DNA from: a virus
Taxonomy: Duplodnaviria > Caudoviricetes
DNA: 54,283 nucleotides
Virus record (IMG/VR): IMGVR_UViG_3300044568_001017
Location: 1 to 54,283 of that record
Reading direction: 5' to 3' (one strand)
Below are positions 24,590 through 48,054 of this stretch, one piece after another. The position numbers were made by a program, and so were the translations under genes. Positions within the stretch are counted from its first letter, which is position 1. Each line of letters opens with the position of its first letter. The notes below the pieces were generated by a model, which made no database searches, was not told the DNA's origin, and saw only the letters and a program-made list of their open reading frames with translations.

Positions 24590-27500
24590 ATGGCTTTCGA
24601 CATAGACGTTTTTCTAAAAGAAAGTGGAAGTGGCGTTGTTGAAAATGAGAGTCAGACAGAGAAACCTCAATCAGTTCAACCCAAAGAAACTGCATTTGAT
24701 ATTGATACATTCCTAAAAGAGAATGTTTCTAATGTTCCAGTAGTATCAGAGCAAATCCAACCGCAAGAACCATCTGGTATCCTAAGACAAGCAGCAGACA
24801 TCCCACTTAAAGTAGCTCAAGGTGGAATCAGTTCAGTAAAAAGTTTCACTGATTTATTCGGCGCAGACAATGCAATGTCTAAAGAGTTAGCTGGATACGA
24901 GAAGTGGGTTGGTAGCCTAGTATCTGCTGAGTCCAAGAAGGACGATGAAGAGATCGCTAGGATTCTAAAGGATGCAGAAAACAAGGGAGTCTACGATAAG
25001 GTTGTAGCTGGTCTTCAAGCATTCTCTAAAGCTCCACTAGAAATGACAGCGCAAAGTGCTGGGTACATGATACCGCAACTTGCCGCTGGTGTGCTAGGAA
25101 AAGCCGCGCAGTTTACTAAAGCTGGTATCATTGGAACACAAGCTGCCATTGGATTTGCTCAAGGAGCAGGGCAAGCTAAAGGAGACATCTACGAATCGAC
25201 ATTAGATTATCTACGCAAACAAGGTGTGTCAGAAAATGTAGCGAACGATAAAGCAATCGAAGCCCAAGCAACGCTAGGAAAGAACCTAGATCAGATTTTA
25301 TTGAGTGCTATAGGGAATGCTTTGACATCTTCAACTGGTGCTGAAGCTATCGCAACCCGTATACTTATCAAGCAAGGCAAGGAAGCAACTGGTGGTGCTA
25401 TCAAAGGATTTTTAAAGGGAGTTGCCGCAGAATCTCCTTTGGAAGCAATTCAAAGCGCACAACAAGAAGTTGCTAAGAATGTTGCTATACAAAGAGAAGG
25501 TGGCGATGTGCCTACGTTCAAGGGTGCTATCGAGAGTGCTACTACTGGCGCGGTAGCTGGTGCATTTATCGGTGGGCCACTGGGTGCATTTGAAGCAATG
25601 AGTGCAGAGCAGAAGGCAGAGATAGACATTACCAAAGAAGCCAATCGTAAGGCGCGTGACCTAGAAGCACCCGATACAGCAACGCAAGCTATAGCAGCAG
25701 CGATTACTAACCTTGAGCGAGGCATTGATAATAAAAGAAAAGACCTAGATGTTTTAGAATCAACCTCACCAGAGGCATCGAAACTACGCTTAGACATTGC
25801 CGCTGACCAAAAGATTTTAGCTCAATCCAAAGAGCAAGCTAACAAATTAGGATTATCGGAAACGATAACAGAAGCAGAGAAGCAACAGATTGAGTTAGCT
25901 AAACAGATAGCTGCACCCGAAGTTGTCGCAGTCGCAGAAGCTGTAACACCCGCACCAGTAGAACAAGTAGTCACGCCACCAGTAGAGGTTGCACCAACCA
26001 TCGCAGAAACCGCGCCAGTTGAGCCAGTAGTAAGCCAAGAATTTAAAGATGAACTTGAAATGTCTGGAGTTGCTTACGATGGAGATACAAGGTATTCCGT
26101 CCAGCAATCTTCTAATGGCACATTCAGAGCGGAAAGAATTGTAAACGGAAAGAAGGAAGATATTCAAATTGGATTGCCAGACATTGAAACGGCACAAAAT
26201 GTAATCTTTAATTCAGTTGGAAAAGAAGTTCCTGCAATAACAGCAGAAACTCCTGCCATAACAATGCCAGAAATTCAACAGCAAGTTCCAAGTGGGATGT
26301 CGGTTGAGGAAGCCAAGGCATATCTTGAAGAAAGAAATAAATCTACAATCCTTGGATACGCGCCAGAAGATATTATGGCTATGCAACAAGGAAAGCGTGT
26401 TGCCAGAACTATTCCTCCCGCACCAGTCATCGAGCAAGCTGCACCAGCAGAAGCTCCCGCGCCAGAGGTTGCGCCTACTTTATGGGTTGCTCCAGAGCAA
26501 AAACTTACTTTGCAAGAAAACAGAGCATTGCAGATAGCCAACCTAAAAGGGACGGAAAAACGGACTGGTAATATTACTTTTGTTCCAGAAAAAATGATGA
26601 CTCCGCAAAGGTTGCAATCATTAAGAACGGAACAAGAATCATCTGGAACATTGAAGCAATTTCCAAGAGGGGGAAAGTTTATTGAGATAAAAATGATGGC
26701 AGATGTGACTGGTGATCCAAATGCAAAGGGATGGGCTATCATTGATCGCAGAACTGATCTTAATAGGAGAGAATGGATTGCTCAAATACCAAATCGAGAT
26801 GAAAGAATTTTGGCTGGAAGTATTGCAAATAATGAATCACAAAAGATTGTTTCTGCAATAAAAGAAGGAAGTATTACACAAGAAAGATCAAATCAACTTG
26901 TTGATGAGGCAGTAAACAATCAAATAATTTCATCGGATTTTGCTAATAATTTAAAGACTGAAATCAGTAAGTCCACCCGCGCAGTATCGGAAACGATAAC
27001 GGAGCCAGCAGAAGAACAAGGAGGTATCTTAAAAGAAACTGCTAAATTTGCTGACGAAGCTTTGCGCGAGCGAGATAAAGAAGTCGCAAGATACAAAAAG
27101 AAAGCTGATGCAGAACGTAAGGCGGGGCGTGAAGAGATGGCGCAACGATATGAAGGAATGATAGACGATTTAATGTCTGTCCCTTCTGAAGATTTTAAAA
27201 AAGATGTAATTGAAAACCCTGAATATTACATTGAATCAAATATTGATCCATTTCTGCGATTCAAAAACAAAGAAGTAAATAGAGCCACCCCATTAACACC
27301 ATCTAAACGCAAAAAAGAATCGGGCGGCGTTCTAATCCCCACCAAAGAAGACTTCATCCAAGCAGGGCAGAACATCTACGAGGCTGGCATGGAGTTTGGT
27401 GCTTGGGCTAAACAGATGATCCAGAGATTCGGTGATGCGGTGAGAGAGTTCCTTGGTGATGTATGGCAAGCGGTGAGTGGTGCGCCAGCGAAGTTAAATG

Positions 27501-30500
27501 AACTGATGGGTTACTTGCCGGGTAAAGGTGAGGCTGGATCGGTGAACCTTGGCAGCGGGAAACCAGCAACTGAATCAAAAAATGCTTTAGAACTAATTCG
27601 CGGAAACTATGGTGAGTTGAGCGATATGATCAACAAGATCATAGATAGTAATCAAAAAATCGCTGATGCTCTACAAAAGATACCCGTTGAACTAACAAGC
27701 AGGAATTCCTTTGATGGAGAAACTGTAAGAATTAGCAAGAGCTTCTCTGGGCTTAAATTAGTTGACGCAATCAACCACGAAATCACTCACTCATTTCTAG
27801 CGGTAGCATTAAGGGAGATTCCTTCATTCCGTGAAGCGATTAACTCAATCCGTCTTGATGCAATTGAGAGAGCAAAGTATTCAAATGACATAAGTTTTAG
27901 GGGCGCAGTTAGTCTAATAAAAGAAGCGCAAGGCTTATCTAGAGGGCTAATCTATACTAAAAGGGACACAGAAAATTTAAGCCAATACATGATCAGAAAT
28001 ACCAATGGCTTAATGTATTTGTGGAATTTGGATAAAACAAATCCTCCATTTACATACGAGATTTTTGAAACTGCTTATGCATTAGCATCCAACGATGAAT
28101 TCTTGGCTCACCTTATGAGTGACAAAAGATTCCGTGATGAGCTAAAAACATACAAGGTATTCACGCCAGACAATAGGAATCTCTTCCAGAAGTTTATAGA
28201 CTCTATCAAGGGCTTATTCCAAAAATTAACAAAGGTTGAGAAGACTGTTCTTGATAAAGCAATGGAGCAAGTTGAGCGAGTTGTTCAACTACCAGAGTAT
28301 AACCCTCGCCCAATTGAGGGACTTGCAGAAATGCTAGCTAAATATGAACAAGGTGATGCCCCAATAGAACCAGAAGCAGAGACAATCACCGAAGCAATGG
28401 GTCAAGGTCTGGATATTGGCAAAGAAGATAATATGCCAATCAACAATAAGATTGAGAGTCATATTAAGAACTTCGCTGTTGTCCGTGGGTTCTTTGAGTC
28501 TGCTAGTGATAGGTTGCGTAGAGCAGGGTTTAAAAAACTAGCTACAGCTATTGATGATTACTATGACCAAGCTCAACGCCGACTTGGATTCGCTAACAAG
28601 ATTCTTCTCCCAGCTTTTGATGAGTACGCAAAACAATCTAAAGCAAACAAGAAAAAGATTGATGAAGAAGTTAAGATGTTCTATGCCGCGCAAGAAAACA
28701 AGCGTGATACGGCTGAGTTCTTTGATGAGTTGAACCCAATCACTCAGAAGATTGTAACTGCTTGGCAGAAGTTTGGTGAAGAATCTGGTAAAGATAACCA
28801 AAGAATCGGAATCAAAGTTTTTGATCGTGGACTACAAAGGTTTCGACCAATCGGACGAGTAGATAAATTCTTCCCTCGTATTCTCAAACCAAAGTACAAA
28901 CAGGCATTGATGGAGCCAGACAAATATCAGAAAGAATACAACGAGATTGTAGAAGCCTTAATGAAGTCTGGAAGAATCGAGAAACCAGAAGACGCAGAGC
29001 GTTACATCTCTAACTACGAAGGAACTGGCACTCAGAAAGACTACTTCTCAGGTATTGAATCTGCCCGTGGTCAAGCACTCCCAGAGGAATTGTATGACTA
29101 TTCCATGCAAGTGATGACGGACTACGTTGCACGATGGGCGCAACACGCTAGTCGAATCGAACAATTCGGACAGAAACTTGGTGAGAACTCGATGACACTT
29201 TGGAATAGATCAAGAGCATCAACTAGAGATCGCAGGACAATCGACTACATTACCGCTGCTCAAGAACGAGTAGAAGGATACTTCCCAAATGATCCTTTCG
29301 TGAAAGGGATGGCGGCATTGAACATCTGGGCATCGGGATTGCAGTTAGGAAACCCAGCATCAGCTACGATGAACCTTGTTGGTGGCACTACGCTGAATGC
29401 CATGATCGGACAACCCGGCGCGGCTTCTAGCTACGTTGAGTCCCTTGTGGAGCTACGCAAACTTGGTAGCAATCTAAAAGACGCTAGAGAAAAAGGAATC
29501 ATCTCGCGTGATCTGATGAATATCGTAGGAGATCACCAAGAAGTTCTCGATCAAAATGGGATCGCTAAAGCTGGACAGAAGACTGCTGACTTCTTATTGA
29601 AGTGGTCAGGTTTCACTCCAGTAGAGCAGATGGTCAGAACACAAAGTCTGATTATCGGAAAATCATTCTTGAGAAAGACACTATCTAGCTACTCTCAAAA
29701 TCCAGATAGTTTATTCTCTAAACAAGCTAGTACATGGTTAAGCCGAAACAATTTTGATATTGATAAGCTGCTCGTTGAGCAAGGAAGCGGCCCAGAGACA
29801 GACAAGTTGATGCGCTACTTCGCTACTGCTTCCCAAGGTGGTTACACAATTTCACAGACTCCTATCTTCATTGATACACCGATTGGTAAATTCCTTTTCA
29901 AGTATCAGAAGTTCTCTACCCAAGTCATGCGTCAAGCATGGAAGAATACGTTTGAGCCAGCGTGGAAGGCCGTCACGTTTAAAGGTGAGACGATGCAACT
30001 GCCATCTGAAACAAGGCAGTTGCTCTATAGACTGAGACTAGCAGAGGCTAGGGAGATCGGAGACAACCGAAAGATTTCATTGGATGAGATACCACAGAAG
30101 GTATCTAAAGCAGAAGCAAAGGCATTAACTCTCATCCCTGTGATGATGTGGCTTGCCTCTGCGTATGTAGGTGGTGAAGCTATCCTGCGTTTGAGGGATG
30201 TTTTGTTTGGCGTAATGATGAAGGGGCCAGACTACGAAGACATCTTGAAAGCGTTAGAAGATGATGAAGACGATGATGAACTTTATCTAGGACTTCAACG
30301 CGCATGGTACAATCTGATTGGTATCGGTGCGCTAGGATTGATCGGCAACTACGGGCAGTTCTTCATGGACTGGCAGGATCGTGAGCGCGTCAAGAATCCG
30401 CTAGACCCACCAGCACTTAGCCTAGTCAAAGAAACTGCTACTCTGATTCAGAACGTAGCAGACCAAGGCACAATCACTAAAGGAGACATCAACAATTATG

Positions 30501-31024
30501 TGAATCGGATGTCATCCATGTATAGAGTGAGTCAGAAACTATACCAAACAGCAGCTAGTGGATTGGGCTTCTCAGACGCACCAACAGTAGCTGAAGAGAT
30601 ATACAGGAGAGAAGTTGCTGACATCAATAAGTATGGTCGTCGCTGGGCTGAGTCCGCTGGACTTGAGTACAGAACCAAGCGTCCAATGGATATTGCCCCA
30701 AGCAAAATGACTCCTATCAACAGGAAGATTTCTAGTTACCTACAAAGGAATGATCCAGTCGGCGCGTCTGCTTATGCTAAAGAATATCTCAAGACACTAC
30801 CCAAAGATGCTCGCAAGAATGCAATCCAGAGCATGGAGTCTGGAGCTAGGAATCGTCAGCCTCTGCGGTTAGGTGACGGGCCAATGGATGAAGCAGAGAA
30901 GAGAGCATTCTTGAAGTGGGCCAAAACAAAAATGAGTCCAGAGAAGTACGCTAGTATTGAGAAACTGACTAAGCAGTATGAATCGAATCGTAAAAAGTTT
31001 CTGATGCGATTGCCGAATAGATAG
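24590..31024 (+). CDS. Large internal virion / ejection (polyvalent) protein with HExxH motif
   Basis: 2144 aa, last gene of the structural operon; N-terminal FDID repeats; INHEITHS followed later by DEFLA (zincin-like). Confidence 0.65.
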   Translation: MAFDIDVFLKESGSGVVENESQTEKPQSVQPKETAFDIDTFLKENVSNVPVVSEQIQPQEPSGILRQAADIPLKVAQGGISSVKSFTDLFGADNAMSKELAGYEKWVGSLVSAESKKDDEEIARILKDAENKGVYDKVVAGLQAFSKAPLEMTAQSAGYMIPQLAAGVLGKAAQFTKAGIIGTQAAIGFAQGAGQAKGDIYESTLDYLRKQGVSENVANDKAIEAQATLGKNLDQILLSAIGNALTSSTGAEAIATRILIKQGKEATGGAIKGFLKGVAAESPLEAIQSAQQEVAKNVAIQREGGDVPTFKGAIESATTGAVAGAFIGGPLGAFEAMSAEQKAEIDITKEANRKARDLEAPDTATQAIAAAITNLERGIDNKRKDLDVLESTSPEASKLRLDIAADQKILAQSKEQANKLGLSETITEAEKQQIELAKQIAAPEVVAVAEAVTPAPVEQVVTPPVEVAPTIAETAPVEPVVSQEFKDELEMSGVAYDGDTRYSVQQSSNGTFRAERIVNGKKEDIQIGLPDIETAQNVIFNSVGKEVPAITAETPAITMPEIQQQVPSGMSVEEAKAYLEERNKSTILGYAPEDIMAMQQGKRVARTIPPAPVIEQAAPAEAPAPEVAPTLWVAPEQKLTLQENRALQIANLKGTEKRTGNITFVPEKMMTPQRLQSLRTEQESSGTLKQFPRGGKFIEIKMMADVTGDPNAKGWAIIDRRTDLNRREWIAQIPNRDERILAGSIANNESQKIVSAIKEGSITQERSNQLVDEAVNNQIISSDFANNLKTEISKSTRAVSETITEPAEEQGGILKETAKFADEALRERDKEVARYKKKADAERKAGREEMAQRYEGMIDDLMSVPSEDFKKDVIENPEYYIESNIDPFLRFKNKEVNRATPLTPSKRKKESGGVLIPTKEDFIQAGQNIYEAGMEFGAWAKQMIQRFGDAVREFLGDVWQAVSGAPAKLNELMGYLPGKGEAGSVNLGSGKPATESKNALELIRGNYGELSDMINKIIDSNQKIADALQKIPVELTSRNSFDGETVRISKSFSGLKLVDAINHEITHSFLAVALREIPSFREAINSIRLDAIERAKYSNDISFRGAVSLIKEAQGLSRGLIYTKRDTENLSQYMIRNTNGLMYLWNLDKTNPPFTYEIFETAYALASNDEFLAHLMSDKRFRDELKTYKVFTPDNRNLFQKFIDSIKGLFQKLTKVEKTVLDKAMEQVERVVQLPEYNPRPIEGLAEMLAKYEQGDAPIEPEAETITEAMGQGLDIGKEDNMPINNKIESHIKNFAVVRGFFESASDRLRRAGFKKLATAIDDYYDQAQRRLGFANKILLPAFDEYAKQSKANKKKIDEEVKMFYAAQENKRDTAEFFDELNPITQKIVTAWQKFGEESGKDNQRIGIKVFDRGLQRFRPIGRVDKFFPRILKPKYKQALMEPDKYQKEYNEIVEALMKSGRIEKPEDAERYISNYEGTGTQKDYFSGIESARGQALPEELYDYSMQVMTDYVARWAQHASRIEQFGQKLGENSMTLWNRSRASTRDRRTIDYITAAQERVEGYFPNDPFVKGMAALNIWASGLQLGNPASATMNLVGGTTLNAMIGQPGAASSYVESLVELRKLGSNLKDAREKGIISRDLMNIVGDHQEVLDQNGIAKAGQKTADFLLKWSGFTPVEQMVRTQSLIIGKSFLRKTLSSYSQNPDSLFSKQASTWLSRNNFDIDKLLVEQGSGPETDKLMRYFATASQGGYTISQTPIFIDTPIGKFLFKYQKFSTQVMRQAWKNTFEPAWKAVTFKGETMQLPSETRQLLYRLRLAEAREIGDNRKISLDEIPQKVSKAEAKALTLIPVMMWLASAYVGGEAILRLRDVLFGVMMKGPDYEDILKALEDDEDDDELYLGLQRAWYNLIGIGALGLIGNYGQFFMDWQDRERVKNPLDPPALSLVKETATLIQNVADQGTITKGDINNYVNRMSSMYRVSQKLYQTAASGLGFSDAPTVAEEIYRREVADINKYGRRWAESAGLEYRTKRPMDIAPSKMTPINRKISSYLQRNDPVGASAYAKEYLKTLPKDARKNAIQSMESGARNRQPLRLGDGPMDEAEKRAFLKWAKTKMSPEKYASIEKLTKQYESNRKKFLMRLPNR

Positions 31025-31454: not shown

Positions 31455-31594
31455 ACGAACGAGACTGGGACGAAACGGACGTATCGGGAGAAGTAGAAGA
31501 AGCAAGGCACGAAGCCTTCATTCATACTTGCGCTATGCGTGACATGGATCAAGGCATCGACCCCAACTTATTTTCCGATGACGATAACGAATAA
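31451..31594 (+). CDS. Small acidic hypothetical protein (not in ORF track)
   Basis: MNERDWDETDVSGEVEE...FSDDDNE, ATGA-coupled. Confidence 0.55.
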   Translation: MNERDWDETDVSGEVEEARHEAFIHTCAMRDMDQGIDPNLFSDDDNE

Positions 31595-32441
31595 TCACGG
31601 GCTTCCCGCCCCAATGTATCGAGCATTGTCACACGATGGCTACACCCCCGGCACTAGGAGGTCAGACATCTCGGTGACAAGTTTAATCGGGCCACCGAAA
31701 ATCAACCAACTCAAGAAGCGGTATTCTGAGTTTATCGTAGAAGACGCAGCAGACAGGGTATGGGCATTGTTAGGTCAGTCCGTACACAAGGTAGTAGAAC
31801 TGGCTGGCGGCGAGACTGAGATGACAGAGAAGCGTCTCTACATGGAGATCAATGACTATACAATAACTGGTCAGACTGATCTCTACGAGACAGAGAACCA
31901 TACCATCTCAGACTTCAAAGTGACATCGGTCTTCTCATTCTTACTTGGAACCAAGCAAGAGTGGGAGGCGCAGATCAACTTGAACGCCATGCTCTGGAGA
32001 GAGTACGGATACGAAGTCAAGAAAGGTCAGATCGTAGCCATCCTTCGGGACTGGCAAGCGAGTAAGGCTGAATTTGACAAAGAGTATCCCCAGTGTGCAG
32101 TACACATTGTTGACATTCCACTATGGGATAATGACGAGTGTATCCGCTACGCTACTGAGCGCATCAAGATGCATCAAGCAGCGGCGGCAATGTCAGATGA
32201 CCACATCCCAGCCTGTGATCCAAGTGAGAGATGGGCTAAACCAGATACCTACGCCATCAAGAAGGATGGTAACAAACGCGCAGCCAAAGTATGCGAGTCC
32301 AAGGAAGAGGCAGAGAACCTTCTACCTACCTACGGGCCGAAGCATTCGATAGAGAAACGAAACGGTGGGGATATGCGGTGTGAGCGTTATTGCTCAGTCG
32401 CTCCCTTCTGCCACTACTACCAAGCAAACTATAAAGAATAA
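31578..32441 (+). CDS. PD-(D/E)XK exonuclease (RecB/Cas4-like)
   Basis: G..VH, GQTDLY...ISDFKVT, Q..L motifs; C-terminal RCERYC...C. Confidence 0.75.
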   Translation: MTITNNHGLPAPMYRALSHDGYTPGTRRSDISVTSLIGPPKINQLKKRYSEFIVEDAADRVWALLGQSVHKVVELAGGETEMTEKRLYMEINDYTITGQTDLYETENHTISDFKVTSVFSFLLGTKQEWEAQINLNAMLWREYGYEVKKGQIVAILRDWQASKAEFDKEYPQCAVHIVDIPLWDNDECIRYATERIKMHQAAAAMSDDHIPACDPSERWAKPDTYAIKKDGNKRAAKVCESKEEAENLLPTYGPKHSIEKRNGGDMRCERYCSVAPFCHYYQANYKE

Positions 32442-32448
32442 CAAATAT

Positions 32449-32817
32449 ATGTATACTACTCAATACGATCCAAACTGTAAAATGCACGAATTCCTTTACA
32501 CGGGAATCGCAATAACCCAAGAAGCAGGCGGTTTAGCTGCGCTGATAGATATGACTAACGGACTTGATATTGAAAGAGCCAAAGAATTTGGCGTTAATTT
32601 CGATGAGTTGTTGGTATCACAAGCTGATACAGCTTATGAAGCATCAATCGTAGTCCGCAACTTAATTGCGGGAGATGTTGATCACATTGCGATTAACGTC
32701 TGTGGATTCGTTTACGATGCAGAAAAGGAGGCGCAGGCTCCAGAAAAACATAAAAAAAATCAAGCTGAACTTAGGGAGATTTTTTATCGAAAAGAAGGAG
32801 TAAAATCAAATGAATAA
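32449..32817 (+). CDS. Truncated RecA-like protein
   Basis: GGLAALIDMTNGLDIERAKEFGVNFDELLVSQADT matches the RecA core segment; no Walker A. Confidence 0.6.
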   Translation: MYTTQYDPNCKMHEFLYTGIAITQEAGGLAALIDMTNGLDIERAKEFGVNFDELLVSQADTAYEASIVVRNLIAGDVDHIAINVCGFVYDAEKEAQAPEKHKKNQAELREIFYRKEGVKSNE

Positions 32818-33070
32818 CTTCAGAGCGGAATTAAAACCAAGTGAACAATTTGAAATCGGAGCATCTGATGCAGCTTATCTTTGGGAAAAGGCAACACACA
32901 TATTGCAAGAGGAAGTAAATAAAGAATTCCATAAAGATCATCCTATGGTTGTTGCTAAATTAGCTGAAATTCAAGCAAGTTTATACACAAATAAAGCGAT
33001 CACTACAGCTATTCAAGACTTGGCAAGTTCAATTAACTTTTTAGCTGAAGTAGTTAAATGCCGCGAATAA
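32810..33070 (+). CDS. Hypothetical protein
   Basis: 86-aa ORF overlapping its neighbours. Confidence 0.6.
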   Translation: MNNFRAELKPSEQFEIGASDAAYLWEKATHILQEEVNKEFHKDHPMVVAKLAEIQASLYTNKAITTAIQDLASSINFLAEVVKCRE

Positions 33071-33078
33071 TAAAAATT

Positions 33079-33876
33079 ATGAGTAACCAACTAGACGGAA
33101 TCGAACAGAAAGACATCATCAAACGAGTGACTGGTAAGGTCACTAAATTGTGGGAACCTAAGACATTCAATGGCCCCAAGGGTGAGTTTGTCATCCAAGG
33201 TGGAGAGATTGAGATCGACGGACAGACCTACGGGTTGAAGTTCTTCAACAACAACCAAGAACAGAGCATCAAGAACAACGTAGTCACGCTCTCCTCAGTC
33301 CGAGGCAAGCATGGTCTAACTGGAGTTACCTTGGAGCATGAGTCCTACGAAGGTAAGAATGGTAAGGTAGATCGTGACATCATCAAGGTTACGGCTACTG
33401 GTAAGATTGAGTTTGAGAGTCAAGAACCAGCCAGAGTCACATCCAAAGTTATCGGTAACGATAATCCTGTGGAGGCATTGGATAAGATCGTTGAGCTACA
33501 TAAGTATGTAGATTCACTCGTTCGCCATGCCTACAAGGGAGTGGAAGACGAAGAAACTCTGCGAGCATACGTCTCGTCGGTCTTCATCGAAGCTAACCGC
33601 AAGGGAATAGCGTTCAAGTCAGAGGTTAAAGCTGAACCCAAAGTAGAAGAGCCTAAAGTAGTGGAGCTAGACCCGGCTGACTGGGCATCTGCTATTGTCC
33701 CTAGTGGCACACAGAAGGGCAAGAAGCTCGCTGAGATCGGCAAGCCAGCATTAACTAAACTCTATGAGTTCTACTTGGAGAAGGGGTTCAGTACTCCATT
33801 CGCTAAGTGTGTAGAGCAAGCCGCCGCTGACCTCGACCTCGACGCACCAGTAGAGAACGACGACATCCCATACTAA
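33079..33876 (+). CDS. Putative ssDNA-binding protein
   Basis: OB-fold-like N-terminus, acidic C-tail ending DDIPY. Confidence 0.6.
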   Translation: MSNQLDGIEQKDIIKRVTGKVTKLWEPKTFNGPKGEFVIQGGEIEIDGQTYGLKFFNNNQEQSIKNNVVTLSSVRGKHGLTGVTLEHESYEGKNGKVDRDIIKVTATGKIEFESQEPARVTSKVIGNDNPVEALDKIVELHKYVDSLVRHAYKGVEDEETLRAYVSSVFIEANRKGIAFKSEVKAEPKVEEPKVVELDPADWASAIVPSGTQKGKKLAEIGKPALTKLYEFYLEKGFSTPFAKCVEQAAADLDLDAPVENDDIPY

Positions 33877-33917
33877 TCCCCCTCGGTTCCTCCCAGAACT
33901 AACCTTAACCAACACTA

Positions 33918-34874
33918 ATGAAAAAAGAACTAGAACTATTCAGTCCAACACAAGAAGGAATCCTTGTATCCGTAGCAACCTATCTTCGCCAGATGGTGGA
34001 GTTCGCCAAAACAGAATGGCGCGGGATTAACATTACCGAATCCCACATCAAGAAGGCGTGGGCCAAGCTCCAGAAGAACGAGTACCTCGAAGATGACGCG
34101 CCAGATGAGATGTTAGAAATGTACGAGAAGATGTCCGCTGACTGGGATATGGCAATCGAAATGGAAGAAGAGAGGATCAACCTAGCTAACATGCCAGAAG
34201 AAGAACCAGAGAACGAATCCTTGGCCCTAGTGGAGAGTGTAAAACAAGGTGTAGAGTTATCCTCCTTCACCAAGAAGTTCGACATCGGCGCGGGGATGAC
34301 CCAATGCGTACCCCGTGGTAAGGTAGAGATGAAAGACTGGGTGGCAGCGTTTGCCTTCGGTCTTACTTTAGAATCAGGCGCGCAATGGATCATCGGTGAT
34401 GCGGTGGTGGCCTTGGATAACGCCGGACATGATGACGTAGTGAACCAACTTTGTGCTAACTTTAAGAAGAGTTACAGCACAGTTTCGGGATACGCGAGGG
34501 CTTGTAGGGCTTTCCCTGCCGCTAAACGTGACGCTGCATTGCCATTTACGGTCTATCGCGAGATCGGAAACGCCAACTTCGGTGATGATAAGACCAATGC
34601 TAAGAAGCAAGCAGCCATGCTAGAGGTGGCTAAAGCGGAGGGTTTGTCCTCTACTGAGGTCAGGAACAGGGTCAGAAACGAGCAAGGTAAGGATGATAAG
34701 TCTGTCCTACCCCATCGGTATTTTGTATTGAATTTAGAAAACTATCGAAACTCGGATGTCAAACGCTCATCACCAGAGAAACCAGAGGCGCATCACTTCA
34801 TCATCGACAGACAAGATATGTCATGGTTCGACGCAGCACAAGGTGAGTGGGTCAAATTCGCAAAGGAACAATAA
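33918..34874 (+). CDS. Putative DNA-binding protein (LmbU-like HTH)
   Basis: 'QWIIGD...SYSTVSGYARACRAFP...R...LPF..YRE' pattern. Confidence 0.45.
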   Translation: MKKELELFSPTQEGILVSVATYLRQMVEFAKTEWRGINITESHIKKAWAKLQKNEYLEDDAPDEMLEMYEKMSADWDMAIEMEEERINLANMPEEEPENESLALVESVKQGVELSSFTKKFDIGAGMTQCVPRGKVEMKDWVAAFAFGLTLESGAQWIIGDAVVALDNAGHDDVVNQLCANFKKSYSTVSGYARACRAFPAAKRDAALPFTVYREIGNANFGDDKTNAKKQAAMLEVAKAEGLSSTEVRNRVRNEQGKDDKSVLPHRYFVLNLENYRNSDVKRSSPEKPEAHHFIIDRQDMSWFDAAQGEWVKFAKEQ

Positions 34875-34877
34875 TTT

Positions 34878-35159
34878 ATGTCAGAAAAAAACCAACAAAA
34901 CGAAACATCCAAGACAATTCTTGAGGCATTCAGCTTCATTAAATGTGAGGATGAGAAACTAAACGAACGAGTACACGCATTCGCCAGCCTCCTGCACACA
35001 GCAGCGATGATGGTGATCAGATCTGAATCCCGCAAGGGTGAAGGGTTTGAGTGTATTAAATACTTGGAGCTTGCAGGGCTTTACTACAAAGAGAGCCAGT
35101 TCCGCAAGCGTTTCGATACTGAAGAGAAGGAAGAAGAAACTTCCCGTATCATAACGTAA
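34878..35159 (+). CDS. Hypothetical protein
   Basis: 93-aa ORF ending the operon. Confidence 0.65.
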   Translation: MSEKNQQNETSKTILEAFSFIKCEDEKLNERVHAFASLLHTAAMMVIRSESRKGEGFECIKYLELAGLYYKESQFRKRFDTEEKEEETSRIIT

Positions 35160-35167
35160 AAAAAGAT

Positions 35168-35195
35168 TTGACATTGTTCTTCGCTCAGTTAGATT
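35168..35195 (+). promoter_or_regulatory. Sigma70-like promoter of non-coding locus
   Basis: TTGACA-N16-TAGATT. Confidence 0.65.
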
Positions 35196-35196
35196 G

Positions 35197-35600
35197 CTTG
35201 TATCCAATACAAGTTCTGACGGGCTTTGGAGATCAATTTTGAGTCAAAAAAATGGGTCTGTTGTAGTCCGTCAGCTACATCAGGCCCTATTTTTTGCCAT
35301 CATTGGATCGTGTAGCCAGCGGGAATGCGTAAATGACGCACCGAGACATAGGTCTGGGAAGTACTGGTGAAGGAGTGGAGTTGGAATGGCTGTTAGACGT
35401 GTTATCCTGCCAACTTAATGTGCCAGCAATGGCGACTTGCAATTAGTCAACGATATTAGACTAGTCTAGGTAAAGGAAAACCGCTGGACGTGGATTGCTA
35501 AGCGAAGGTGACAATACCTATACGGAAAACGTCTTGATTCGTGGCAAAGTTTTCCCAAACTTTTGGGAGACTTTGTCGCTCGGTTCAGCCCTGCCAAAAA
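35197..35600 (+). ncRNA. Candidate large structured ncRNA with attenuator-like 5' module
   Basis: No ORF of 60 aa or more; many stems, long-range pairs CCAGCGG/CCGCTGG and GGATCG/TGATTC, a GCAA tetraloop, and a long 3' hairpin at 35541-35579. Confidence 0.55.
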
Positions 35601-35624
35601 ACGAGGTTGATTCAATCAGCGTTG

Positions 35625-35664
35625 AAAACAAAAAAACCAGAAAGGAATTTCTTCCAATCTGGTT
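35625..35664 (-). terminator. Intrinsic terminator for helicase operon
   Basis: AACCAGA...TCTGGTT stem followed by a T-run on the minus strand. Confidence 0.6.
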
Positions 35665-35685
35665 CTAAGTTTTGTGAAACTAGTT

Positions 35686-37305
35686 TTAAATTAGTTCATT
35701 TTTCGGAACTAAGGAAATAGTTCCATCAATTTCACCATCTGCTAATAAATCCATTCGTTTGAGTTTACCATCTAGCTTCTCACAGATGTTTTCTTCTACG
35801 AAAACTCCTGCTGCATAGACAATGTATTGGATGGATTTAGTTTTGCCTCCTGCGCGGTGGACTCTGCCTAAGACTTGTTTAAGGTCGAATACAGAGGGAG
35901 TCGGCATGATTAGCGCAACTCTAGGAGCATCACCAGTCAGATCGTGGAGGTTTAAGCCTTCTCTGCAAGCTTGTATGATACCCACGATAACTTTAGAATC
36001 GCCCCGCTGGAAGGAGTCAATGTTACCTCTACGCTCCATTTCATTCTGACCCCCGTGGATAGAGCAAGATACTTTTAACTCATCAAGAATCCACTTGCGG
36101 GTTTCGGTGTAGTTGACTGCGATAAAGACACTATTGCCTTCTTCGATCAAATCTCTCACCATAGCACAGACCGCCGGGGCTTTATGCATTTCGATCCGTT
36201 GTCTAGCTCTAGTCTGTTCTGCTAGGACGTTAGCAGAGAAGTTTTCCTGCATACGAAGCTCCTCGATCCTGCAACAGAGGTCTTCATACTCATTGGCAAT
36301 CTTTTTAGCGTTGTCCATGTCGAACGCTTTGGCTTTGATTAGCGTCTCTGGAAACGCATCACCAAGGTCAGAGTGTCTTAACCGATTACCTTTTTCGGGG
36401 TAGATTCGGCTATGTAGGCGTTTCAAGATACCATTACCGCCTTGGAACTGCATTCCGAATCGGGTTTTCTTGCATCCGTTCTGGTTAAGGAAGCGGTAGT
36501 AATCTTTCCCGCCTTGGTGCAGACCTAAGAACTGACCGATTGCCCACAACTTCATGGGGTCGTCGGCGATGGTAGCAGAGAGGGCGATAGCTTGGACATT
36601 CTGGTTTACTGAGTCTCTAACTAGGTAAGCGTTCTGGGTGGCTTCACCTTTGCCGCGATGAACCTCGTCAAAGATCAGGATAACATCAGGCGGAAGCATG
36701 AATTTGAACTCATGCTTCTTATCATCTGTCCATCTACCTAGCTGAGATTTACCAGTTTTCGCCCACTCCCATCCGCATACCTCAAAGACCTCAACGCCCA
36801 TCATCTTCGCGGCGCGATGCCAGTCGGTAGTGATAGGCTTTGGACAGATCACAGCAACCCGCTTTCCTAACTCACGGGCGATGCCGAGGGCACAGAAGGT
36901 CTTACCGACACCCGTAGAGTGACCTAGCAGGACTCGGTTATACTTAGCCATGCTAGAAACCCCCATCTGAACGGAAGTTTGCTGATACTCAAAGAGATTT
37001 TCGGGGTGGAGTAGAGGGATTAGATTAAGTTCCTCTACTTTCTCCTCAACATTATCGTTACCGATAACGGGTTTGAACTTGAGGTTTTCATCTGACCACC
37101 AAGACAAGGCCCATTCCTCTCTGAACTTACCCATAGAGATGCCAGCCGCTGCCAGTTGCTCTTTGAATGTCTCCTTGTCTTCTTTGTAGACCTTCCAGAA
37201 AGCATCCTCGATAGGAGCTTTGCGGAGGAGTCTGACCCCTCGTTTCGTATTAAGCTGAATGGGATGTGACCATTCAACCGTTGCCAGTAGATCGTGGACG
37301 TTCAT
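35686..37305 (-). CDS. SF2 (SNF2-like) helicase
   Basis: STGVGKT Walker A, DEVH, LSAT, EGLNL, QVLGRVHRAG. Confidence 0.85.
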   Translation of the reverse strand: MNVHDLLATVEWSHPIQLNTKRGVRLLRKAPIEDAFWKVYKEDKETFKEQLAAAGISMGKFREEWALSWWSDENLKFKPVIGNDNVEEKVEELNLIPLLHPENLFEYQQTSVQMGVSSMAKYNRVLLGHSTGVGKTFCALGIARELGKRVAVICPKPITTDWHRAAKMMGVEVFEVCGWEWAKTGKSQLGRWTDDKKHEFKFMLPPDVILIFDEVHRGKGEATQNAYLVRDSVNQNVQAIALSATIADDPMKLWAIGQFLGLHQGGKDYYRFLNQNGCKKTRFGMQFQGGNGILKRLHSRIYPEKGNRLRHSDLGDAFPETLIKAKAFDMDNAKKIANEYEDLCCRIEELRMQENFSANVLAEQTRARQRIEMHKAPAVCAMVRDLIEEGNSVFIAVNYTETRKWILDELKVSCSIHGGQNEMERRGNIDSFQRGDSKVIVGIIQACREGLNLHDLTGDAPRVALIMPTPSVFDLKQVLGRVHRAGGKTKSIQYIVYAAGVFVEENICEKLDGKLKRMDLLADGEIDGTISLVPKNELI

Positions 37306-37478
37306 AATTTCGCTTTAAGCAAAGCTGACCTGCATTGGAGGGCTAGGAGAGAGTCAGAATCCCCGAAAGTATCGACAACCGCTTGCAGGGCATCGACAAT
37401 TTCCCGCCGAACTGGATCAGCGAGGTAAGTATCCTTAACGCGGAACGGCTTCTGTTTGTGTAAGGTATGTGTTCTCAT
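37302..37478 (-). CDS. Hypothetical protein (not in ORF track)
   Basis: MRTHTLHKQKP..., 58 aa, ATGA-coupled. Confidence 0.5.
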   Translation of the reverse strand: MRTHTLHKQKPFRVKDTYLADPVRREIVDALQAVVDTFGDSDSLLALQCRSALLKAKL

Positions 37479-37627
37479 TTCTCGAATTTGATTGCTGTTA
37501 TCTTCTTGTCTGGGTAGACGGTTGACCGAAACTTTGGCATTTCGGTGGTCTTCTCAGCTTTCTGCCAGAGGCGTATGTAGGCTTCTGGCGGTAGGCAAGT
37601 GGCTTGATTTTTTTCGGTGTAGCTCAT
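37475..37627 (-). CDS. Hypothetical protein (not in ORF track)
   Basis: MSYTEKNQATC..., 50 aa, ATGA-coupled. Confidence 0.5.
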   Translation of the reverse strand: MSYTEKNQATCLPPEAYIRLWQKAEKTTEMPKFRSTVYPDKKITAIKFEK

Positions 37628-37839
37628 AGTAAGACAGATTTAAGGGCTATCATTTCGTTTTCATCAATGTGCGTTGTCGTGATCTTGTTATCATATGACT
37701 GGATAATGCACATATCGTTGCACTCCTGATCTAATAGGATGCACGTCTCGTAACCATCTATGCAAGTTGTTAGCCTGATAGTATGGCGGGTTTCAGTTCC
37801 TCTGATTTGGTCGATTATTGCTTTGTCTATTGTTCTCAT
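37624..37839 (-). CDS. Hypothetical protein
   Basis: 71 aa with an A-rich leader. Confidence 0.6.
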   Translation of the reverse strand: MRTIDKAIIDQIRGTETRHTIRLTTCIDGYETCILLDQECNDMCIIQSYDNKITTTHIDENEMIALKSVLL

Positions 37840-37914
37840 TTTTATTGTTGTTTGTTGTTGTGTTGTGGAGGGAAATCTGTTGACAATCTGGCATATTTTT
37901 GTGAATAGTAAACT

Positions 37915-38490
37915 ATGAACAAAACGCCAGAATTGAATAGCGAAACGCTAGGCCGTGGAAGTCGGAAAAAGTGGGACATGGAGAAGATAGAAACGCTATT
38001 CATGGGCGGGGCGGAGATGAGTGACATTCTGAAACTCCCTGAGTTTTCGTTGATGAGTAAGTTTTATCTCAAAAACTGCATGGTGAAGGGAAAGTGGATC
38101 GACAAGCGGAAAAGGTTGCGGGAAGAAGTGGCAAACGTGGTGGCTCCGAAGCTGGAGGACGCAATGGCATCTGAAACTATTGCTCATTATGCGTTTATGC
38201 TGAGAGAGATTGCGGCGGAGAGGGTGCAGATTGAAACGAGACACAAGAGCGGGAACATTAAAGATCAGGCGCAAAGGCTGGACGTGTTGGCGGAATATGA
38301 GAAAATTGCCACAAGAGCGTTGGGATTGGATGAAAATAATATGCACGATAAGAAAGGTTTATCTGTGAACGCGATGATTTCTCTGCACGTTAGCGGGCCG
38401 ACGAAAGCGGATAAGGTTGAAATTGTATCCACGCAATATGTCGATGCAGCGGAGGGCTTGGAAAAAGACGATAAATTGGATACAGAGTGA
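37915..38490 (+). CDS. Putative terminase small subunit
   Basis: N-terminal 'WDMEKIETLFMGG' HTH-like region, helical core, 'RALGLDE'. Confidence 0.45.
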   Translation: MNKTPELNSETLGRGSRKKWDMEKIETLFMGGAEMSDILKLPEFSLMSKFYLKNCMVKGKWIDKRKRLREEVANVVAPKLEDAMASETIAHYAFMLREIAAERVQIETRHKSGNIKDQAQRLDVLAEYEKIATRALGLDENNMHDKKGLSVNAMISLHVSGPTKADKVEIVSTQYVDAAEGLEKDDKLDTE

Positions 38491-41824: not shown

Positions 41825-42214
41825 TCATAGTTTGATTAAGGTGACTCCCATTTTTTGAGCTATTACTAGGGCGGCGGGGTCAGTTTGGTAGATGTCTTTA
41901 TAGAGGACTCTCTTTATTCCATAGGCTACTAGGGTCTTTAAGCAGTCTGTGCATGGGAGTAATGTTGAGCAGAGTGTCTTTCCTTCTCCGGGTTTAGTGT
42001 ATCTGAGGGCGTTTTGTTCTGCGTGGATGACGTACTTCCTTCTTTCATCTCTATCTGACCAGTCTTCTTCTATACCTTTAGGGAATCCGTTGTACCCTAC
42101 TGAGGCTATGGAGTTGTCTTCTCTTAGGATTACCGCGCCGACTTGTCTCCACGGGTCTTTGCTTTTCTTAGCTACTACCTCAGCTATACTCATAGCGTAT
42201 TCGTCCCAGTTCAT
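41825..42214 (-). CDS. dCMP deaminase
   Basis: SKDP..QVGA, GYNG, HAEQNA, PCTDC zinc motifs. Confidence 0.9.
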   Translation of the reverse strand: MNWDEYAMSIAEVVAKKSKDPWRQVGAVILREDNSIASVGYNGFPKGIEEDWSDRDERRKYVIHAEQNALRYTKPGEGKTLCSTLLPCTDCLKTLVAYGIKRVLYKDIYQTDPAALVIAQKMGVTLIKL

Positions 42215-42417
42215 TTGGTGAATTGTATCTCGTCTAGCATTTCAGATGGATCGCGCCACCCGTTTGCCATTGCCTCTATCCATAATGCTGGATCAATTGT
42301 AGCTGTATGCGTCCATCCATCTCGCAATTTTTTCTCTATTGCTAGAGTTTCTTGCGCCGCATGAATCTTCACTGTCCCTTCTTTAGAGAAGATAAATAAC
42401 ATGGTGTCTAAAATCAT
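42211..42417 (-). CDS. Hypothetical protein
   Basis: ATGA-coupled start at 42417 (MILDTM...). Confidence 0.55.
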   Translation of the reverse strand: MILDTMLFIFSKEGTVKIHAAQETLAIEKKLRDGWTHTATIDPALWIEAMANGWRDPSEMLDEIQFTK

Positions 42418-43310
42418 AGGTTGTTTATGTAATTGATCCATTCATTACGAATGATAGCCCAGTCTATTGATTTCCCTATTTCATAGGATTCATTACAGAG
42501 TGTTCTATAATAAGAAGAATCTGCTTTCATTTTTTCTATTTCGTAAACTGCTTTGTAGATGAATCCTTCTTCATCTAATGGGAGAAGTTTACCTCCCCCA
42601 TTTTTGAGGTATTCTGGTGCTATTCCAGTAGGAGTCCCAAGTACAGGTATTCCACAAGAGAATGCTTCTAACATTGGGTATGGATTACCTTCTACTAAGG
42701 AGGCAAAGATAACCAATCCTATTTGGTTGTACATTTGTTCAACTGCAAGGAAGTTAACTGATTCACTTTTTATTAATTGAAGGTTTGTTTTTTCAGCTAT
42801 TACATCTATTAAATGCCCACGTTTAACGTCATATCCTTGGTCTATTCTTTGTGATTTAGCAAAACTTCCTATGTTCTTTAGTTCTGAACTATTATTTTTA
42901 GGATATTGGTTTTGGAATGTTCCTATCCTTAGTAGGCTTGGAACTCTACCTACCCCATGAGATAGTGATACATTTTGAAGCAATGGTGCTATGGCTGCGT
43001 AACCTCCTAGTTTATCAAACCAATCCTTCTTTCCTTCTCTAACTGGATTATAAACATCACAATCTTGGTGAAGAACGCCTATTGTTCTTTCTAGTGGGAC
43101 TCCGTATCTTTCATGGATTAAGAAGCATCCATAAGGAATTGACATGATATAGTCATATTTCTTTAAGAATAAGTCAAAATCTTTATGTGTGTATTGGTTG
43201 TTCCAGCAAGCAATGTCGCAATAGATGTCAGGGTGTAATGCTTTGATTAACTCATTATGAATCTTCCCAAATACCCATCCGTTGTGAATAAAGAATAAAA
43301 CCTTTTTCAT
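42414..43310 (-). CDS. Glycosyltransferase (GT4 / GT-B)
   Basis: SLVEGNPYPMLEAFSCGIPV (E-x7-E motif). Confidence 0.8.
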   Translation of the reverse strand: MKKVLFFIHNGWVFGKIHNELIKALHPDIYCDIACWNNQYTHKDFDLFLKKYDYIMSIPYGCFLIHERYGVPLERTIGVLHQDCDVYNPVREGKKDWFDKLGGYAAIAPLLQNVSLSHGVGRVPSLLRIGTFQNQYPKNNSSELKNIGSFAKSQRIDQGYDVKRGHLIDVIAEKTNLQLIKSESVNFLAVEQMYNQIGLVIFASLVEGNPYPMLEAFSCGIPVLGTPTGIAPEYLKNGGGKLLPLDEEGFIYKAVYEIEKMKADSSYYRTLCNESYEIGKSIDWAIIRNEWINYINNL

Positions 43311-43906
43311 TTAGTTATAGTTAGATTTTCCGAATGGAATTTTATATTAGGAAACATCTTGTGAAGTGAGAATGCAATTTTATCTATCTGATTGGTATTT
43401 CCGTACCTTCCTACGATATATTCTACTGTTATTGAATTACAGGATATTTTATTAGCAAGAATGCTTTTTGCTACTTCTTTAAATATAATGTGATCATGTC
43501 CCTCTGTGTCTATTTTAAGAATGTCAATATGATCTATATTGTATTTAGATATAAGATTATCAAATGATATGACGTTGATCTTCTTTGATTCTATAATTGA
43601 TAAGGGAACTCCAAAGTTATTAAGATAGTGTACTACAACAACGTGAGGTTCATTTATCTTGCTGCATCCCTTTATCCACATTGGAAGATTATGTGATATA
43701 ATCTTTTCTTCTGGAACATAGAATATATCAATTGATCCATCCTTATCTGAACAGGCTGAGTTTTCCTTTTGGATGTTTTCTCCAGATGGAAGCCTGTTTA
43801 AGTACTCTTCCATTGGTTCAACTAGAAGATAGTTTTTATCTTTAGAGAATACTCCATCAGCAACTTCAAAGTCACACGTCCCTATATCTACATAGTCGTA
43901 GTTCAT
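43307..43906 (-). CDS. FkbM-family methyltransferase
   Basis: VDIG, VEP, IDILKIDTEGHD motifs. Confidence 0.8.
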   Translation of the reverse strand: MNYDYVDIGTCDFEVADGVFSKDKNYLLVEPMEEYLNRLPSGENIQKENSACSDKDGSIDIFYVPEEKIISHNLPMWIKGCSKINEPHVVVVHYLNNFGVPLSIIESKKINVISFDNLISKYNIDHIDILKIDTEGHDHIIFKEVAKSILANKISCNSITVEYIVGRYGNTNQIDKIAFSLHKMFPNIKFHSENLTITK

Positions 43907-45009
43907 GGATAGTATTTGTAGAGTGAGTTAAGTCCGTTCCCGTCTGCGTACCATCCCCGACCTTGGTAGATGTCTAGGATGTCATTGAAGTATTTCTCGT
44001 ACATTGGAGCTACTTTATCTAAGGTGAAGTTCTTGCCGAAGGCTAGGCAGTCTTGTGGTCTGATTTTCTTAATATTGTGCATGGCATCTATGAAGTCACC
44101 CATAGTCCTGCATCGGTATCCTGTGATCCCGTGTGGGTTGTTTTCAGCGAAGCAGCCCCAGTCTGTAGTTAGGGTAGGAGTACCAGAGAGTAAGTTCTCT
44201 ACTTGGACTCCCCCGAAGGGTTCTACATACATTGAGGGGATGAAGGAAGCTGTGGCGTTGGACATTAACTTCTTTCTCATGTTAACGTCTGCGTAGCCTA
44301 CATATTCAACGTGATCTGGGAGTTTGTAACCTTCCTCTTTTTGCCCAGCTATCACTAGTCTTTTACCTAAGATTTCAGTCGCTTGAATAGCAACTTCAAC
44401 TCCCTTACCAGAATATACCCGACCAAGGTAAAGATAGTAATCCTCTTTTTTCTCGTTATAATCGAAATCATCAAGATCAAAATAGTTGGGTATGACAACT
44501 TCATACCAGTCTTGTCTACAGGAACCTACACCTTGCATACCAGCATAAGCATGGTAGATGGCATAGGATTCAAATACTTTAAATCGCGCCCAGTGACCAC
44601 CAGCATATCCAATGCCGGGTTCAACTACAATCATATCTTGATGAGCGTCACAGATCGGTCTGACTCCTGATCCCCAAAAGGGGAGAATAAAGTCATGTTT
44701 TTGTTTTCTCTTACCTACTTCTTTAATAGCGTTTTTATAGAAGGTTTGATAAGCATGATCGTTAGTATCAAACTTAAAAAATGTCTTACGCCAGTCATGG
44801 CTTCCATAGGATTTCTTAAAGTCATCATTGGTTAATACAGTAACGTGTTCAGTGCATGGTAAGTCTGAGTCTTCATGCCCGTAGTGGATGACTTCATGCC
44901 CACGTTCCGTCATCATCTTTCCGAATTTAACTACCTTTTGTGTATAAGCACAGGCATTAAACTCTTTAGATGAGACCGTGTGAGGAAGCCCTAAAATATG
45001 GTATCTCAT
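43903..45009 (-). CDS. Glycosyltransferase (GT4 / GT-B)
   Basis: YLGR...KG, EPFGGVQVENLLSGTP. Confidence 0.85.
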   Translation of the reverse strand: MRYHILGLPHTVSSKEFNACAYTQKVVKFGKMMTERGHEVIHYGHEDSDLPCTEHVTVLTNDDFKKSYGSHDWRKTFFKFDTNDHAYQTFYKNAIKEVGKRKQKHDFILPFWGSGVRPICDAHQDMIVVEPGIGYAGGHWARFKVFESYAIYHAYAGMQGVGSCRQDWYEVVIPNYFDLDDFDYNEKKEDYYLYLGRVYSGKGVEVAIQATEILGKRLVIAGQKEEGYKLPDHVEYVGYADVNMRKKLMSNATASFIPSMYVEPFGGVQVENLLSGTPTLTTDWGCFAENNPHGITGYRCRTMGDFIDAMHNIKKIRPQDCLAFGKNFTLDKVAPMYEKYFNDILDIYQGRGWYADGNGLNSLYKYYP

Positions 45010-48050: not shown

Positions 48051-48054
48051 TAGA

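Follow-up and report, generated by a model that had tools for sequence, protein, structure and literature searches.

The window analyzed here is a whole IMG/VR record from a tailed phage, linear, 54,283 bp long, and estimated to be complete. Tail-fibre, collagen-repeat, and pectate-lyase-like proteins are encoded on its plus strand; an SF2 helicase, DnaB (46800-48182), a dCMP deaminase, and glycosyltransferases are encoded on its minus strand. A 2,144-aa ORF that follows the tail genes (24590-31024) has no Pfam family at an E value of ≤0.01. The minus-strand stretch 41825-45009, which comprises the dCMP deaminase, two group 1 glycosyltransferases, and an FkbM-type methyltransferase, is low in GC (0.36 over 42001-44000), and a 224-aa ORF with an HNH endonuclease domain (52784-53458) is located close to the record's right end. 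An exonuclease and a RecA-like ORF are situated directly upstream of the locus studied; at 31539-32817, the exonuclease-like ORF (phrog_2139) shares 77 nt with a 150-aa ORF whose similarity to RecA is confined to the middle of that protein (profile positions 73-167 of 262) and which may be a short or split RecA-like gene.

The locus itself is a 526-nt gap (35160-35685) between two convergent genes. Upstream lies a 93-aa gene without a family (34878-35159, plus strand), a homologue of which occurs in 43 of 43 related loci whether or not the RNA described below is present; downstream lies the SF2 helicase gene (35686-37305, minus strand; Pfam Helicase_C and ResIII; phrog_62 DNA helicase, E = 2.6e-45). 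The gap contains only short, overlapping ORFs of 37 to 59 aa, so the ORF-free stretch pointed out in an earlier, sequence-only reading of this DNA is real.

A promoter scan of 34500-36500 returned a single promoter-like site, a sigma-70-like TTGACA-16-nt spacer-TAGATT on the plus strand at 35168-35195, in which 10 of 12 positions match. In 13 of 13 homologues, TTGACA is unchanged, as are positions 1, 2, and 6 of the second hexamer, in contrast to a variable spacer. L113, the one truly distant member of the family found (core identity, 48%; found among the metagenome pattern hits described below, on a phage-like contig of higher G+C), has the equivalent TTGACA-16-TAATTT immediately 3' of the upstream ORF, as read by eye. 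Two nucleotides past the -10 hexamer begins an inverted repeat, L1 (35197-35213, plus strand; 7 bp, loop CCA), three of whose seven pairs change on both sides; a T-A pair becomes C-G in 9 of 30 sequences, and L113 carries a comparable repeat, CAACC...GGTTG, at the same place. L1 could be the 5' hairpin of the RNA or a DNA operator, and the 5' end of the RNA is uncertain because L1 overlaps the expected transcription start.

At the other end, an inverted-repeat search located a hairpin between an A-run and a T-rich tail (35635-35664; 13-nt arms, 85% complementary). This hairpin is a terminator serving both the RNA unit and the convergent helicase gene; a simple terminator scan did not have it among its matches. 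The 67-nt stretch that includes it recurs in relatives that carry a different RNA cargo (type 2) or an HNH ORF in the same position. The conserved part of the RNA stops near 35600, and the tail at 35596-35626 differs in length, other members being about 40 nt longer. The RNA gene is best taken to be about 400 nt long, from about 35200 to 35600 on the plus strand, within a self-contained unit at 35168-35664. The stretch of about 300 nt (35300-35600) first proposed as an RNA lies inside this gene; its start was placed some 100 nt too far downstream.

Searches for known families returned nothing that would name the element. None of the 4,227 models of Rfam 15 matched anywhere in the window at its gathering score, and none matched within 35200-35600 at an E value of ≤10; the four matches listed at that cutoff all fall at 35616-35733, over the terminator, with 15 to 26 bits against thresholds of 38 to 100. 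Rfam searches of five relatives (L113, L096, L046, L103, and L073) yielded nothing relevant. ARAGORN found no tRNA or tmRNA gene in the window, and neither the group I core nor any other Rfam intron model matched at an E value of ≤10, in agreement with the sequence-only reading; moreover, no gene is interrupted and there are no exons. For a riboswitch or another cis-regulatory leader, there is no downstream gene on the same strand to control, the next gene being the convergent helicase gene. The neighbors do not suggest a retron or other RT-associated RNA either, as they are the 93-aa ORF and the helicase, and no RT domain was found in the 28 ORFs scanned with Pfam out of 79 ORFs of ≥90 aa, many of which are overlapping shadows. 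Among 50,697 GenBank phage records, there was no DNA match for 35160-35690, and the helicase protein matched only at ≤27% identity; on these grounds no cultured relative or host was found. A limited literature search found no description of an RNA like this one.

The possibility that the locus encodes one or more small proteins is, in our judgment, the least credible of the readings considered. Besides the ORFs of 37 to 59 aa, a 10-codon frame starts at 35387, with an AGGAG-type site 10 nt upstream by eye. Its ATG is replaced, however, in at least 6 of 30 sequences (L054, L067, L097, L104, L105, and L115), and the peptide varies at most positions. No ORF is conserved among members: indels of 1 to 2 nt, not multiples of three, shift the frames, and variable columns are spread over the codon phases as 43/41/33, without 3-nt periodicity.

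An optional cassette in related phages

Related phage loci numbered 34 and 43 in protein-anchored searches. By blastn of the gap, the full element is present in 12 of the 43 (one of them cut by a contig end); five further loci match only in part, over the first 149 nt and the last 67 nt or, in L047, truncated at a contig end, over the first 149 nt alone. The content of the slot between the 93-aa gene and the helicase gene was then assigned from gap sizes and ORFs. Twelve of 43 loci hold the RNA of the window (type 1), and 5 hold the same promoter and leader followed by a different noncoding cargo of about 420 nt in which GAAA-type loops abound (type 2). An HNH endonuclease ORF occupies the slot in 3 loci, the terminator alone remains in 21 (gap of 64 to 130 nt), and 2 have a gap of 251 nt. 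The phages closest to the window by their flanking proteins (L036 to L038; 95% identical) are without the RNA. Slot occupancy and these RNA-less closest relatives indicate that the cassette is optional and exchanged between phages. The phages that host it are a group from lakes and sediments.

A covariance model, R1, was built on 12 sequences over 35363-35499 (effective sequence number, 1.36); it gives 156 bits for the window and 107 bits (E = 6e-30) for L113. Motif scans of IMG/VR added 13 and 2 contigs, and metagenome contigs gave 25 pattern hits, 2 of them (L108 and L112) dropped as chance when R1 did not confirm them. A search of one genome for each of 185,579 prokaryotic species with the exact pattern yielded no confirmed copy; its one hit, L126, was likewise dropped after R1 failed to confirm it. 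Three leader-pattern hits (L093, L095, and L098) lie inside coding DNA and were discarded as chance. Viral scans with a looser core motif and with a type 2 motif gave no new contigs. Within ±4 kb, no ORF cluster tracks with the RNA, spurious internal ORFs aside.

The type 2 cargo (L073:5430-6075; also in L056, L057, L068/L092, L094, and L127, as similar copies on 3 to 5 contigs) is framed by the promoter and leader of type 1 on one side and by its terminator on the other, and it has no Rfam match. That it might be a diverged type 1 was considered and rejected: R1 finds nothing in L056, L057, L068, and L073, and the short motifs that the two types share occur in a different order. The slot ORFs of 206 to 308 aa (L045:5236-6196, L072:5248-6290, and L048:5616-6407) include two with a C-terminal H-N-H-like motif, a hint of free-standing homing endonucleases; in L045, the ORF is preceded by a TTGAC-type promoter of its own and by a leader of about 190 nt with stem-loops. 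In L077 (5405-6600), three extra ORFs lie between the 93-aa gene and the RNA cassette, and one of them, of 115 aa, resembles by eye 6-pyruvoyl-tetrahydropterin/QueD-type enzymes (queuosine-pathway-like). Because of these HNH ORFs and queuosine-pathway-like genes, the slot appears to accommodate accessory cargo of a conflict-related kind.

A conserved pseudoknotted fold on the plus strand

The sequence-only reading had proposed collecting homologues and checking them for covariation. We aligned 30 distinct homologous sequences (alignment A3) and derived a fold model of 106 pairs in 20 helices from RNAalifold and a scan for helices paired in ≥87% of sequences. Both sides change in 43 of the 106 pairs, compared to 20.1 ± 2.6 after shuffling (0 of 500 shuffles reached 43), under a control that ignores the relatedness of the sequences, which fall into few lineages. 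Likewise, 90.9% of 3,129 cells are paired (shuffled, 84.6 ± 0.3%), 193 cells are changed on both sides (shuffled, 54.8 ± 7.0), and the covariation score is 0.211, against 0.098 for shuffled alignments and 0.028 to 0.048 when the partners are slid by 1 to 3 columns. Most members are 69 to 100% identical to the window; L113 keeps the main helices and both pseudoknots with different letters. The folding energy of 35300-35600 alone is weak (z = -1.57; 6 of 100 shuffles fold as well), and it is the covariation that marks the fold as more than chance. Over 35200-35680, z is -3.65 for the plus strand (0 of 100 shuffles) and -2.84 for the minus strand.

These figures bear on the view that there is no RNA gene at all, only two terminators and recently spread filler DNA whose conservation reflects recent horizontal transfer. 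Many members are indeed near identical, the cassette moves among phages, terminator-like hairpins stand at both ends, and the energy score of the core is weak. Compensatory changes in 43 pairs, far above both controls, nevertheless speak against it, as do the architecture kept in L113 at 48% identity and the conserved promoter-like site, and we consider it very improbable.

The core domain (35305-35540, plus strand) is a multibranched junction whose modelled helices 6 to 16 are 89 to 100% paired, with 21 pairs changed on both sides. The best supported core helices, paired in 89 to 100% of cells and with compensatory changes, are 35315-19:35364-68, 35378-84:35410-16, 35421-25:35430-34, 35440-44:35493-97, 35445-48:35459-62, 35464-67:35486-89, and 35469-71:35480-82. 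The same degree of support extends to a 3-bp pseudoknot, PK2 (35374-76:35483-85, plus strand), which is paired in 100% of cells, to the long 3' hairpin, and to the leader hairpin (35254-87) and pseudoknot PK1 treated below. The core also includes 35320-22:35341-43 and 35326-30:35336-40, and a candidate closing helix (35305-09:35536-40, plus strand) corresponds to the GGATCG/TGATTC pairing seen earlier, which exists and is invariant within the phage group. Three modelled helices scored at only 34 to 58% paired, owing to misalignment around indels or register slips, and were not relied on; two of them are small plus-strand hairpins (35507-10:35515-18 and 35522-24:35530-32) that recur with different letters when the variants are folded separately. 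The long 3' hairpin (35543-58:35563-77, plus strand), previously described as about 17 bp, is real: it has 15 pairs and one bulge, is 99.8% paired with 4 pairs changed on both sides, and is retained in L113 as a hairpin of other letters at the same place. A small 3' hairpin follows on the plus strand (35582-35595), whose alignment pairs 419:432, 420:431, and 421:430 hold in 28 to 30 of 30 sequences. Invariant junction nucleotides comprise GAAGG..TGGAG, CTTAAT, and AGGTAAAGGA. Three conserved purine-rich motifs are Shine-Dalgarno-like, but two are base-paired in the supported fold, and the idea of an anti-Shine-Dalgarno sponge was set aside.

Of the local hairpins named in the sequence-only reading, most were borne out. 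TGCGT/ACGCA (35326-30:35336-40) is paired in 98% of cells over the 30 sequences, GTTGG/CCAAC (35380-84:35410-14) in 100% with three further pair types at one position, and GCCA-GCAA-TGGC (35422-25:35430-33) in 100% with two pairs that switch, in 12 and 15 of 30 sequences. The loop of this last hairpin alternates among GCAA, TTCG, GTAA, and GAGA. AGAC/GTCT (35344-47:35352-55) stands weakly, at 75% paired in a region with indels. TAGC/GCTA is 90% paired, although its last pair collides with the better supported helix 35440-44:35493-97. GACT/AGTC (35434-37:35445-48) had to be given up: it is broken without compensation in 3 of 30 sequences, and AGTC pairs instead with a downstream GACT (35459-62), where a change is compensated. 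CCAGCGG/CCGCTGG (35316-22:35481-87) also fell, although it is predicted by the minimum-energy fold and forms a perfect 7 bp in 24 of 30 sequences. One-sided changes disrupt it in L101, L096, L097, L103, and L113 and partly in L046. The alternatives of its two strands stay paired (35315-19:35364-68 in 96% and 35374-76:35483-85 in 100% of cells), and the alternative partners, CTGG (35364-67) and AGT (35374-76), change in step. The nested minimum-energy fold, which is the model of the sequence-only reading and was also the consensus of 12 sequences, was accordingly dropped for the core after 18 added sequences showed these one-sided changes.

The strand of the RNA follows from G-U pairs. Well-aligned helices contain 291 G-U cells and 27 A-C cells, and standard pairs account for 97.2% of cells when read as plus and 87.3% when read as minus. 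Altogether, our data show a conserved pseudoknotted plus-strand fold that consists of a 5' leader with PK1, a multibranched core with PK2, and a long 3' hairpin.

The sequence-only reading had allowed for a structured single-stranded DNA origin instead, and a DNA-level element more broadly could be a replication origin or a packaging site. Inverted repeats are abundant, and replication genes are near (SF2 helicase, 35686-37305; DnaB, 46800-48182). The element is absent, however, from 31 of 43 related loci, including 21 empty slots and the closest relatives, and thus cannot be an essential origin. It has no iterons, only three two-copy direct repeats of 10 to 15 nt, and the cumulative GC skew peaks elsewhere, near 40 to 42 kb. 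Exchanges between GNRA-type and TTCG tetraloops are typical of RNA; such swaps, together with the G-U pairs, point to RNA, and the promoter-like site and terminator hairpin frame the element as a transcription unit. A DNA role is hardly believable on these grounds.

Public sequencing runs are consistent with this picture. The stretch is present in 20 of the 24 runs listed, from lake, freshwater, and sediment samples; 6 of the 24, from four studies, are metatranscriptomes, with 44 to 89% of sampled words. Contigs from four of four metatranscriptome runs examined cover the element, and a 373-nt contig in run X16 corresponds to 35224-35594 with no mismatches, spanning leader and core. Within 33000-38000, the flanks of the element are almost uncovered in X16 and X20 and covered in X15 and X18; these being assembled contigs, they carry no strand, ends, or level, and uncovered parts prove nothing. 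Since RNA libraries can contain DNA, the cover is compatible with transcription but is not proof of it.

Taken together, the covariation, the strand given by G-U pairs, the conserved promoter-like site, the lack of a conserved ORF and of an Rfam match, and the RNA-library contigs uphold the earlier proposal of an unclassified structured RNA. We put the probability that the locus is a gene for a structured noncoding RNA of a new family, absent from Rfam, at nearly 80%; its function is a guess.

The 5' leader and pseudoknot PK1

The leader contains the 5' strand of PK1, CTGACGGGCT (35216-35225, plus strand), which is complementary over 10 to 11 bp to 35265-35274, the apical part of a long terminator-like hairpin (35254-35287, plus strand; 12 pairs, 98.3% paired, 5 changed on both sides). 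In 29 of 29 distinct leader variants, the 10- to 11-bp match persists; among them occur 13 versions of the 5' strand and 10 of the loop strand, and five of the seven modelled pairs change on both sides. L113 has a wholly different pair from that of the window group, GGTTGAT with ATCAACC, at the same places. Within the window clade, seven sequences that are ≥99% identical in a 305-nt core, 7 of 20 PK1 columns vary, compared to 16 of 415 others (odds ratio, 13; Fisher P = 2e-5), several of those 16 being ragged alignment ends; in two further members of the clade, L039 and L120, the whole leader allele is replaced. PK1 thus changes much faster than the other helices and always in a matched manner. 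Such a pattern would fit a specificity determinant better than a plain structural helix.

Downstream of the leader hairpin, a T-run and GC (35290-35297, plus strand) could be either a terminator tail or the 5' strand of a helix, Hu. In Hu, 35291-97 would pair with GCGAAGG (35502-35508); its 7 pairs are almost invariant, each being standard in 28 to 30 of 30 sequences. By eye, the type 2 cargo has GCGAAA at the corresponding position, within a nested stem, and L113 also has a purine-rich partner, in line with a possible role of the T-run in Hu. The order of elements in L113 is the same: TTGACA, GGTTGAT, a 13-pair hairpin with loop ATCAACC, a T-run, GCCACC.T.GGA.CG, and the core. We regard the leader (35200-35300) as part of the RNA because of the T-run:GCGAAGG helix, this shared order, and the RNA-library contig of 35224-35594.

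The same segment resembles an efficient terminator. By prediction, 35254-35295 qualifies as an intrinsic terminator, with a G+C-based 13-pair hairpin followed by six T, 90 nt past the promoter; if it works as such, it would speak against an abundant full-length RNA. An A-run before the leader hairpin is also complementary to the T-run after it (35245-35296; 22-nt arms, 82%). With this nearby A-run and the distal GCGAAGG as alternative possible partners, the T-run could be part of a switch.

One could accordingly look for the active part in the leader itself. It would be an immunity-type RNA, in which the loop of the terminated leader pairs with nascent transcripts of the phage or of a co-infecting phage and sets the level of the cargo. 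A strong hairpin and T-run within 90 nt of the promoter, two complementary segments that diversify together in one leader, and two different cargos behind the same leader all favor such a role. It leaves the conserved 300-nt core unexplained, however, and no Rfam antisense or immunity model matches. In addition, both cargos contain a conserved partner of the T-run, consistent with a structural role, and a search of the phage genome for a third PK1 partner gave three matches at ≤1 mismatch (chance expectation, 2.2), two of which are the two strands of PK1. We hold this explanation to be improbable.

Possible function and comparison with known systems

Beyond the sequence-only reading, the present analysis adds the leader as part of the RNA, the fast-changing but matched PK1, and the optional cassette slot with its alternative cargos. 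We infer that the RNA would be made from its own promoter during infection and would act in trans as a folded molecule, since it has no downstream target to regulate and no protein gene is linked to it. Transcription might stop early at the leader hairpin and T-run, which would release a short leader RNA; alternatively, read-through would let the T-run be locked into the full fold by its helix with GCGAAGG. As to what the full-length RNA does, a tentative proposal, to which we give clearly less than an even chance, is that it binds or sequesters a factor of the host or of a rival phage, or self-assembles, in phage-phage or phage-host conflict. PK1 could then be an address that tells self from non-self, in keeping with its rapid yet matched change.

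A more specific version, which we consider unlikely, is a modular class of phage RNAs without a protein component. In this scheme, a conserved 5' address domain would be fused to interchangeable large 3' domains, of which types 1 and 2 would be examples. The pairing of the loop strand, quick to diversify yet always matched, would enable RNA molecules or co-infecting phages to distinguish self from non-self, be it by self-assembly that is allele specific or by hetero-immunity based on RNA, and the whole would be a conflict system made of RNA alone.

Multipseudoknotted large RNAs are uncommon, and among the large bacterial classes whose function is known, many are ribozymes or the cores of ribonucleoproteins. 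The RNA might be a ribozyme, self-processing or trans-acting and possibly tied to the mobility of the cassette, with PK1 as the pairing between guide and substrate. Its size, two pseudoknots, and invariant junction nucleotides resemble those of large catalytic RNAs, PK1 behaves like a specificity pairing, and the slot is also used by ORFs of the HNH homing type. Conversely, no Rfam ribozyme or intron model matches at an E value of ≤10. No gene is split into exons by the element, and the only 3' sequence that it shares with the other cargo is the terminator. An empty, uninterrupted leader-plus-tail allele was not found among the 43 loci, and no processing site is visible in the data used. A catalytic role strikes us as quite doubtful, and a decoy, scaffold, or self-assembling RNA in phage-phage or phage-host conflict remains the reading that we prefer.

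Beside the large phage RNAs GOLLD and ROOL, the RNA, at about 400 nt, represents a class that is smaller and easier to work with, and it comes with three experimental handles. As an optional cassette, it provides natural presence/absence variants in similar phages; its leader is common to a second, unrelated cargo RNA; and PK1, with its many natural alleles, lends itself to swap-and-rescue experiments. Should the diversity of PK1 stem from self/non-self recognition, it would parallel immunity specificity at the RNA level; otherwise, the element still stands as a well-supported new family for Rfam.

Several known systems resemble parts of this unit. Like an intrinsic terminator or attenuator, the leader has a hairpin followed by six T (35254-35295) and a flanking A-run; unlike a plain terminator, its loop takes part in a covarying pseudoknot, its T-run has a conserved distal partner, and the RNA-library contig runs through it. 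In the CI RNA of P4 and the c4 RNA of P1/P7, a short leader past the promoter contains complementary segments that vary in sequence from one related element to another yet still match. The complementary leader segments just past the promoter here look similar, but the RNA of the window has no Rfam match at an E value of ≤10 and no downstream protein genes to repress, and a conserved 300-nt core follows its leader. The pRNA of phi29 is a structured phage RNA in which covarying loop pairings between phages set which molecules assemble together. The present RNA differs in that it has no Rfam match and is more than twice the size, and its absence from many close relatives excludes a core part in packaging.

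The candidate structured RNAs that Fremin et al. (2023) drew from IMG/VR stem from the same data source and from the same kind of evidence, namely, covariation in phage intergenic regions. They range from 29 to 151 nt with a mean of 67 (PMC10690425), so that a set of this size range could list at most fragments, that is, single hairpins, of the RNA described here.

The closest parallel is offered by the orphan ornate phage RNAs GOLLD and ROOL, which have recently proved to be self-assembling cages. Neither of their Rfam models matches, the RNA here measures about 400 nt, and the window has no tRNA genes; by comparison, one ROOL is given as 659 nt and many GOLLDs as more than 800 nt (PMC12286853). 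GOLLD is also described as having one conserved and one variable half (PMC12286853), and the conserved half of the RNA here is the 5' leader. By analogy, the RNA would nonetheless work most like GOLLD and ROOL, as all three are phage-borne, large, multipseudoknotted, noncoding, and optional and have no known protein partner.
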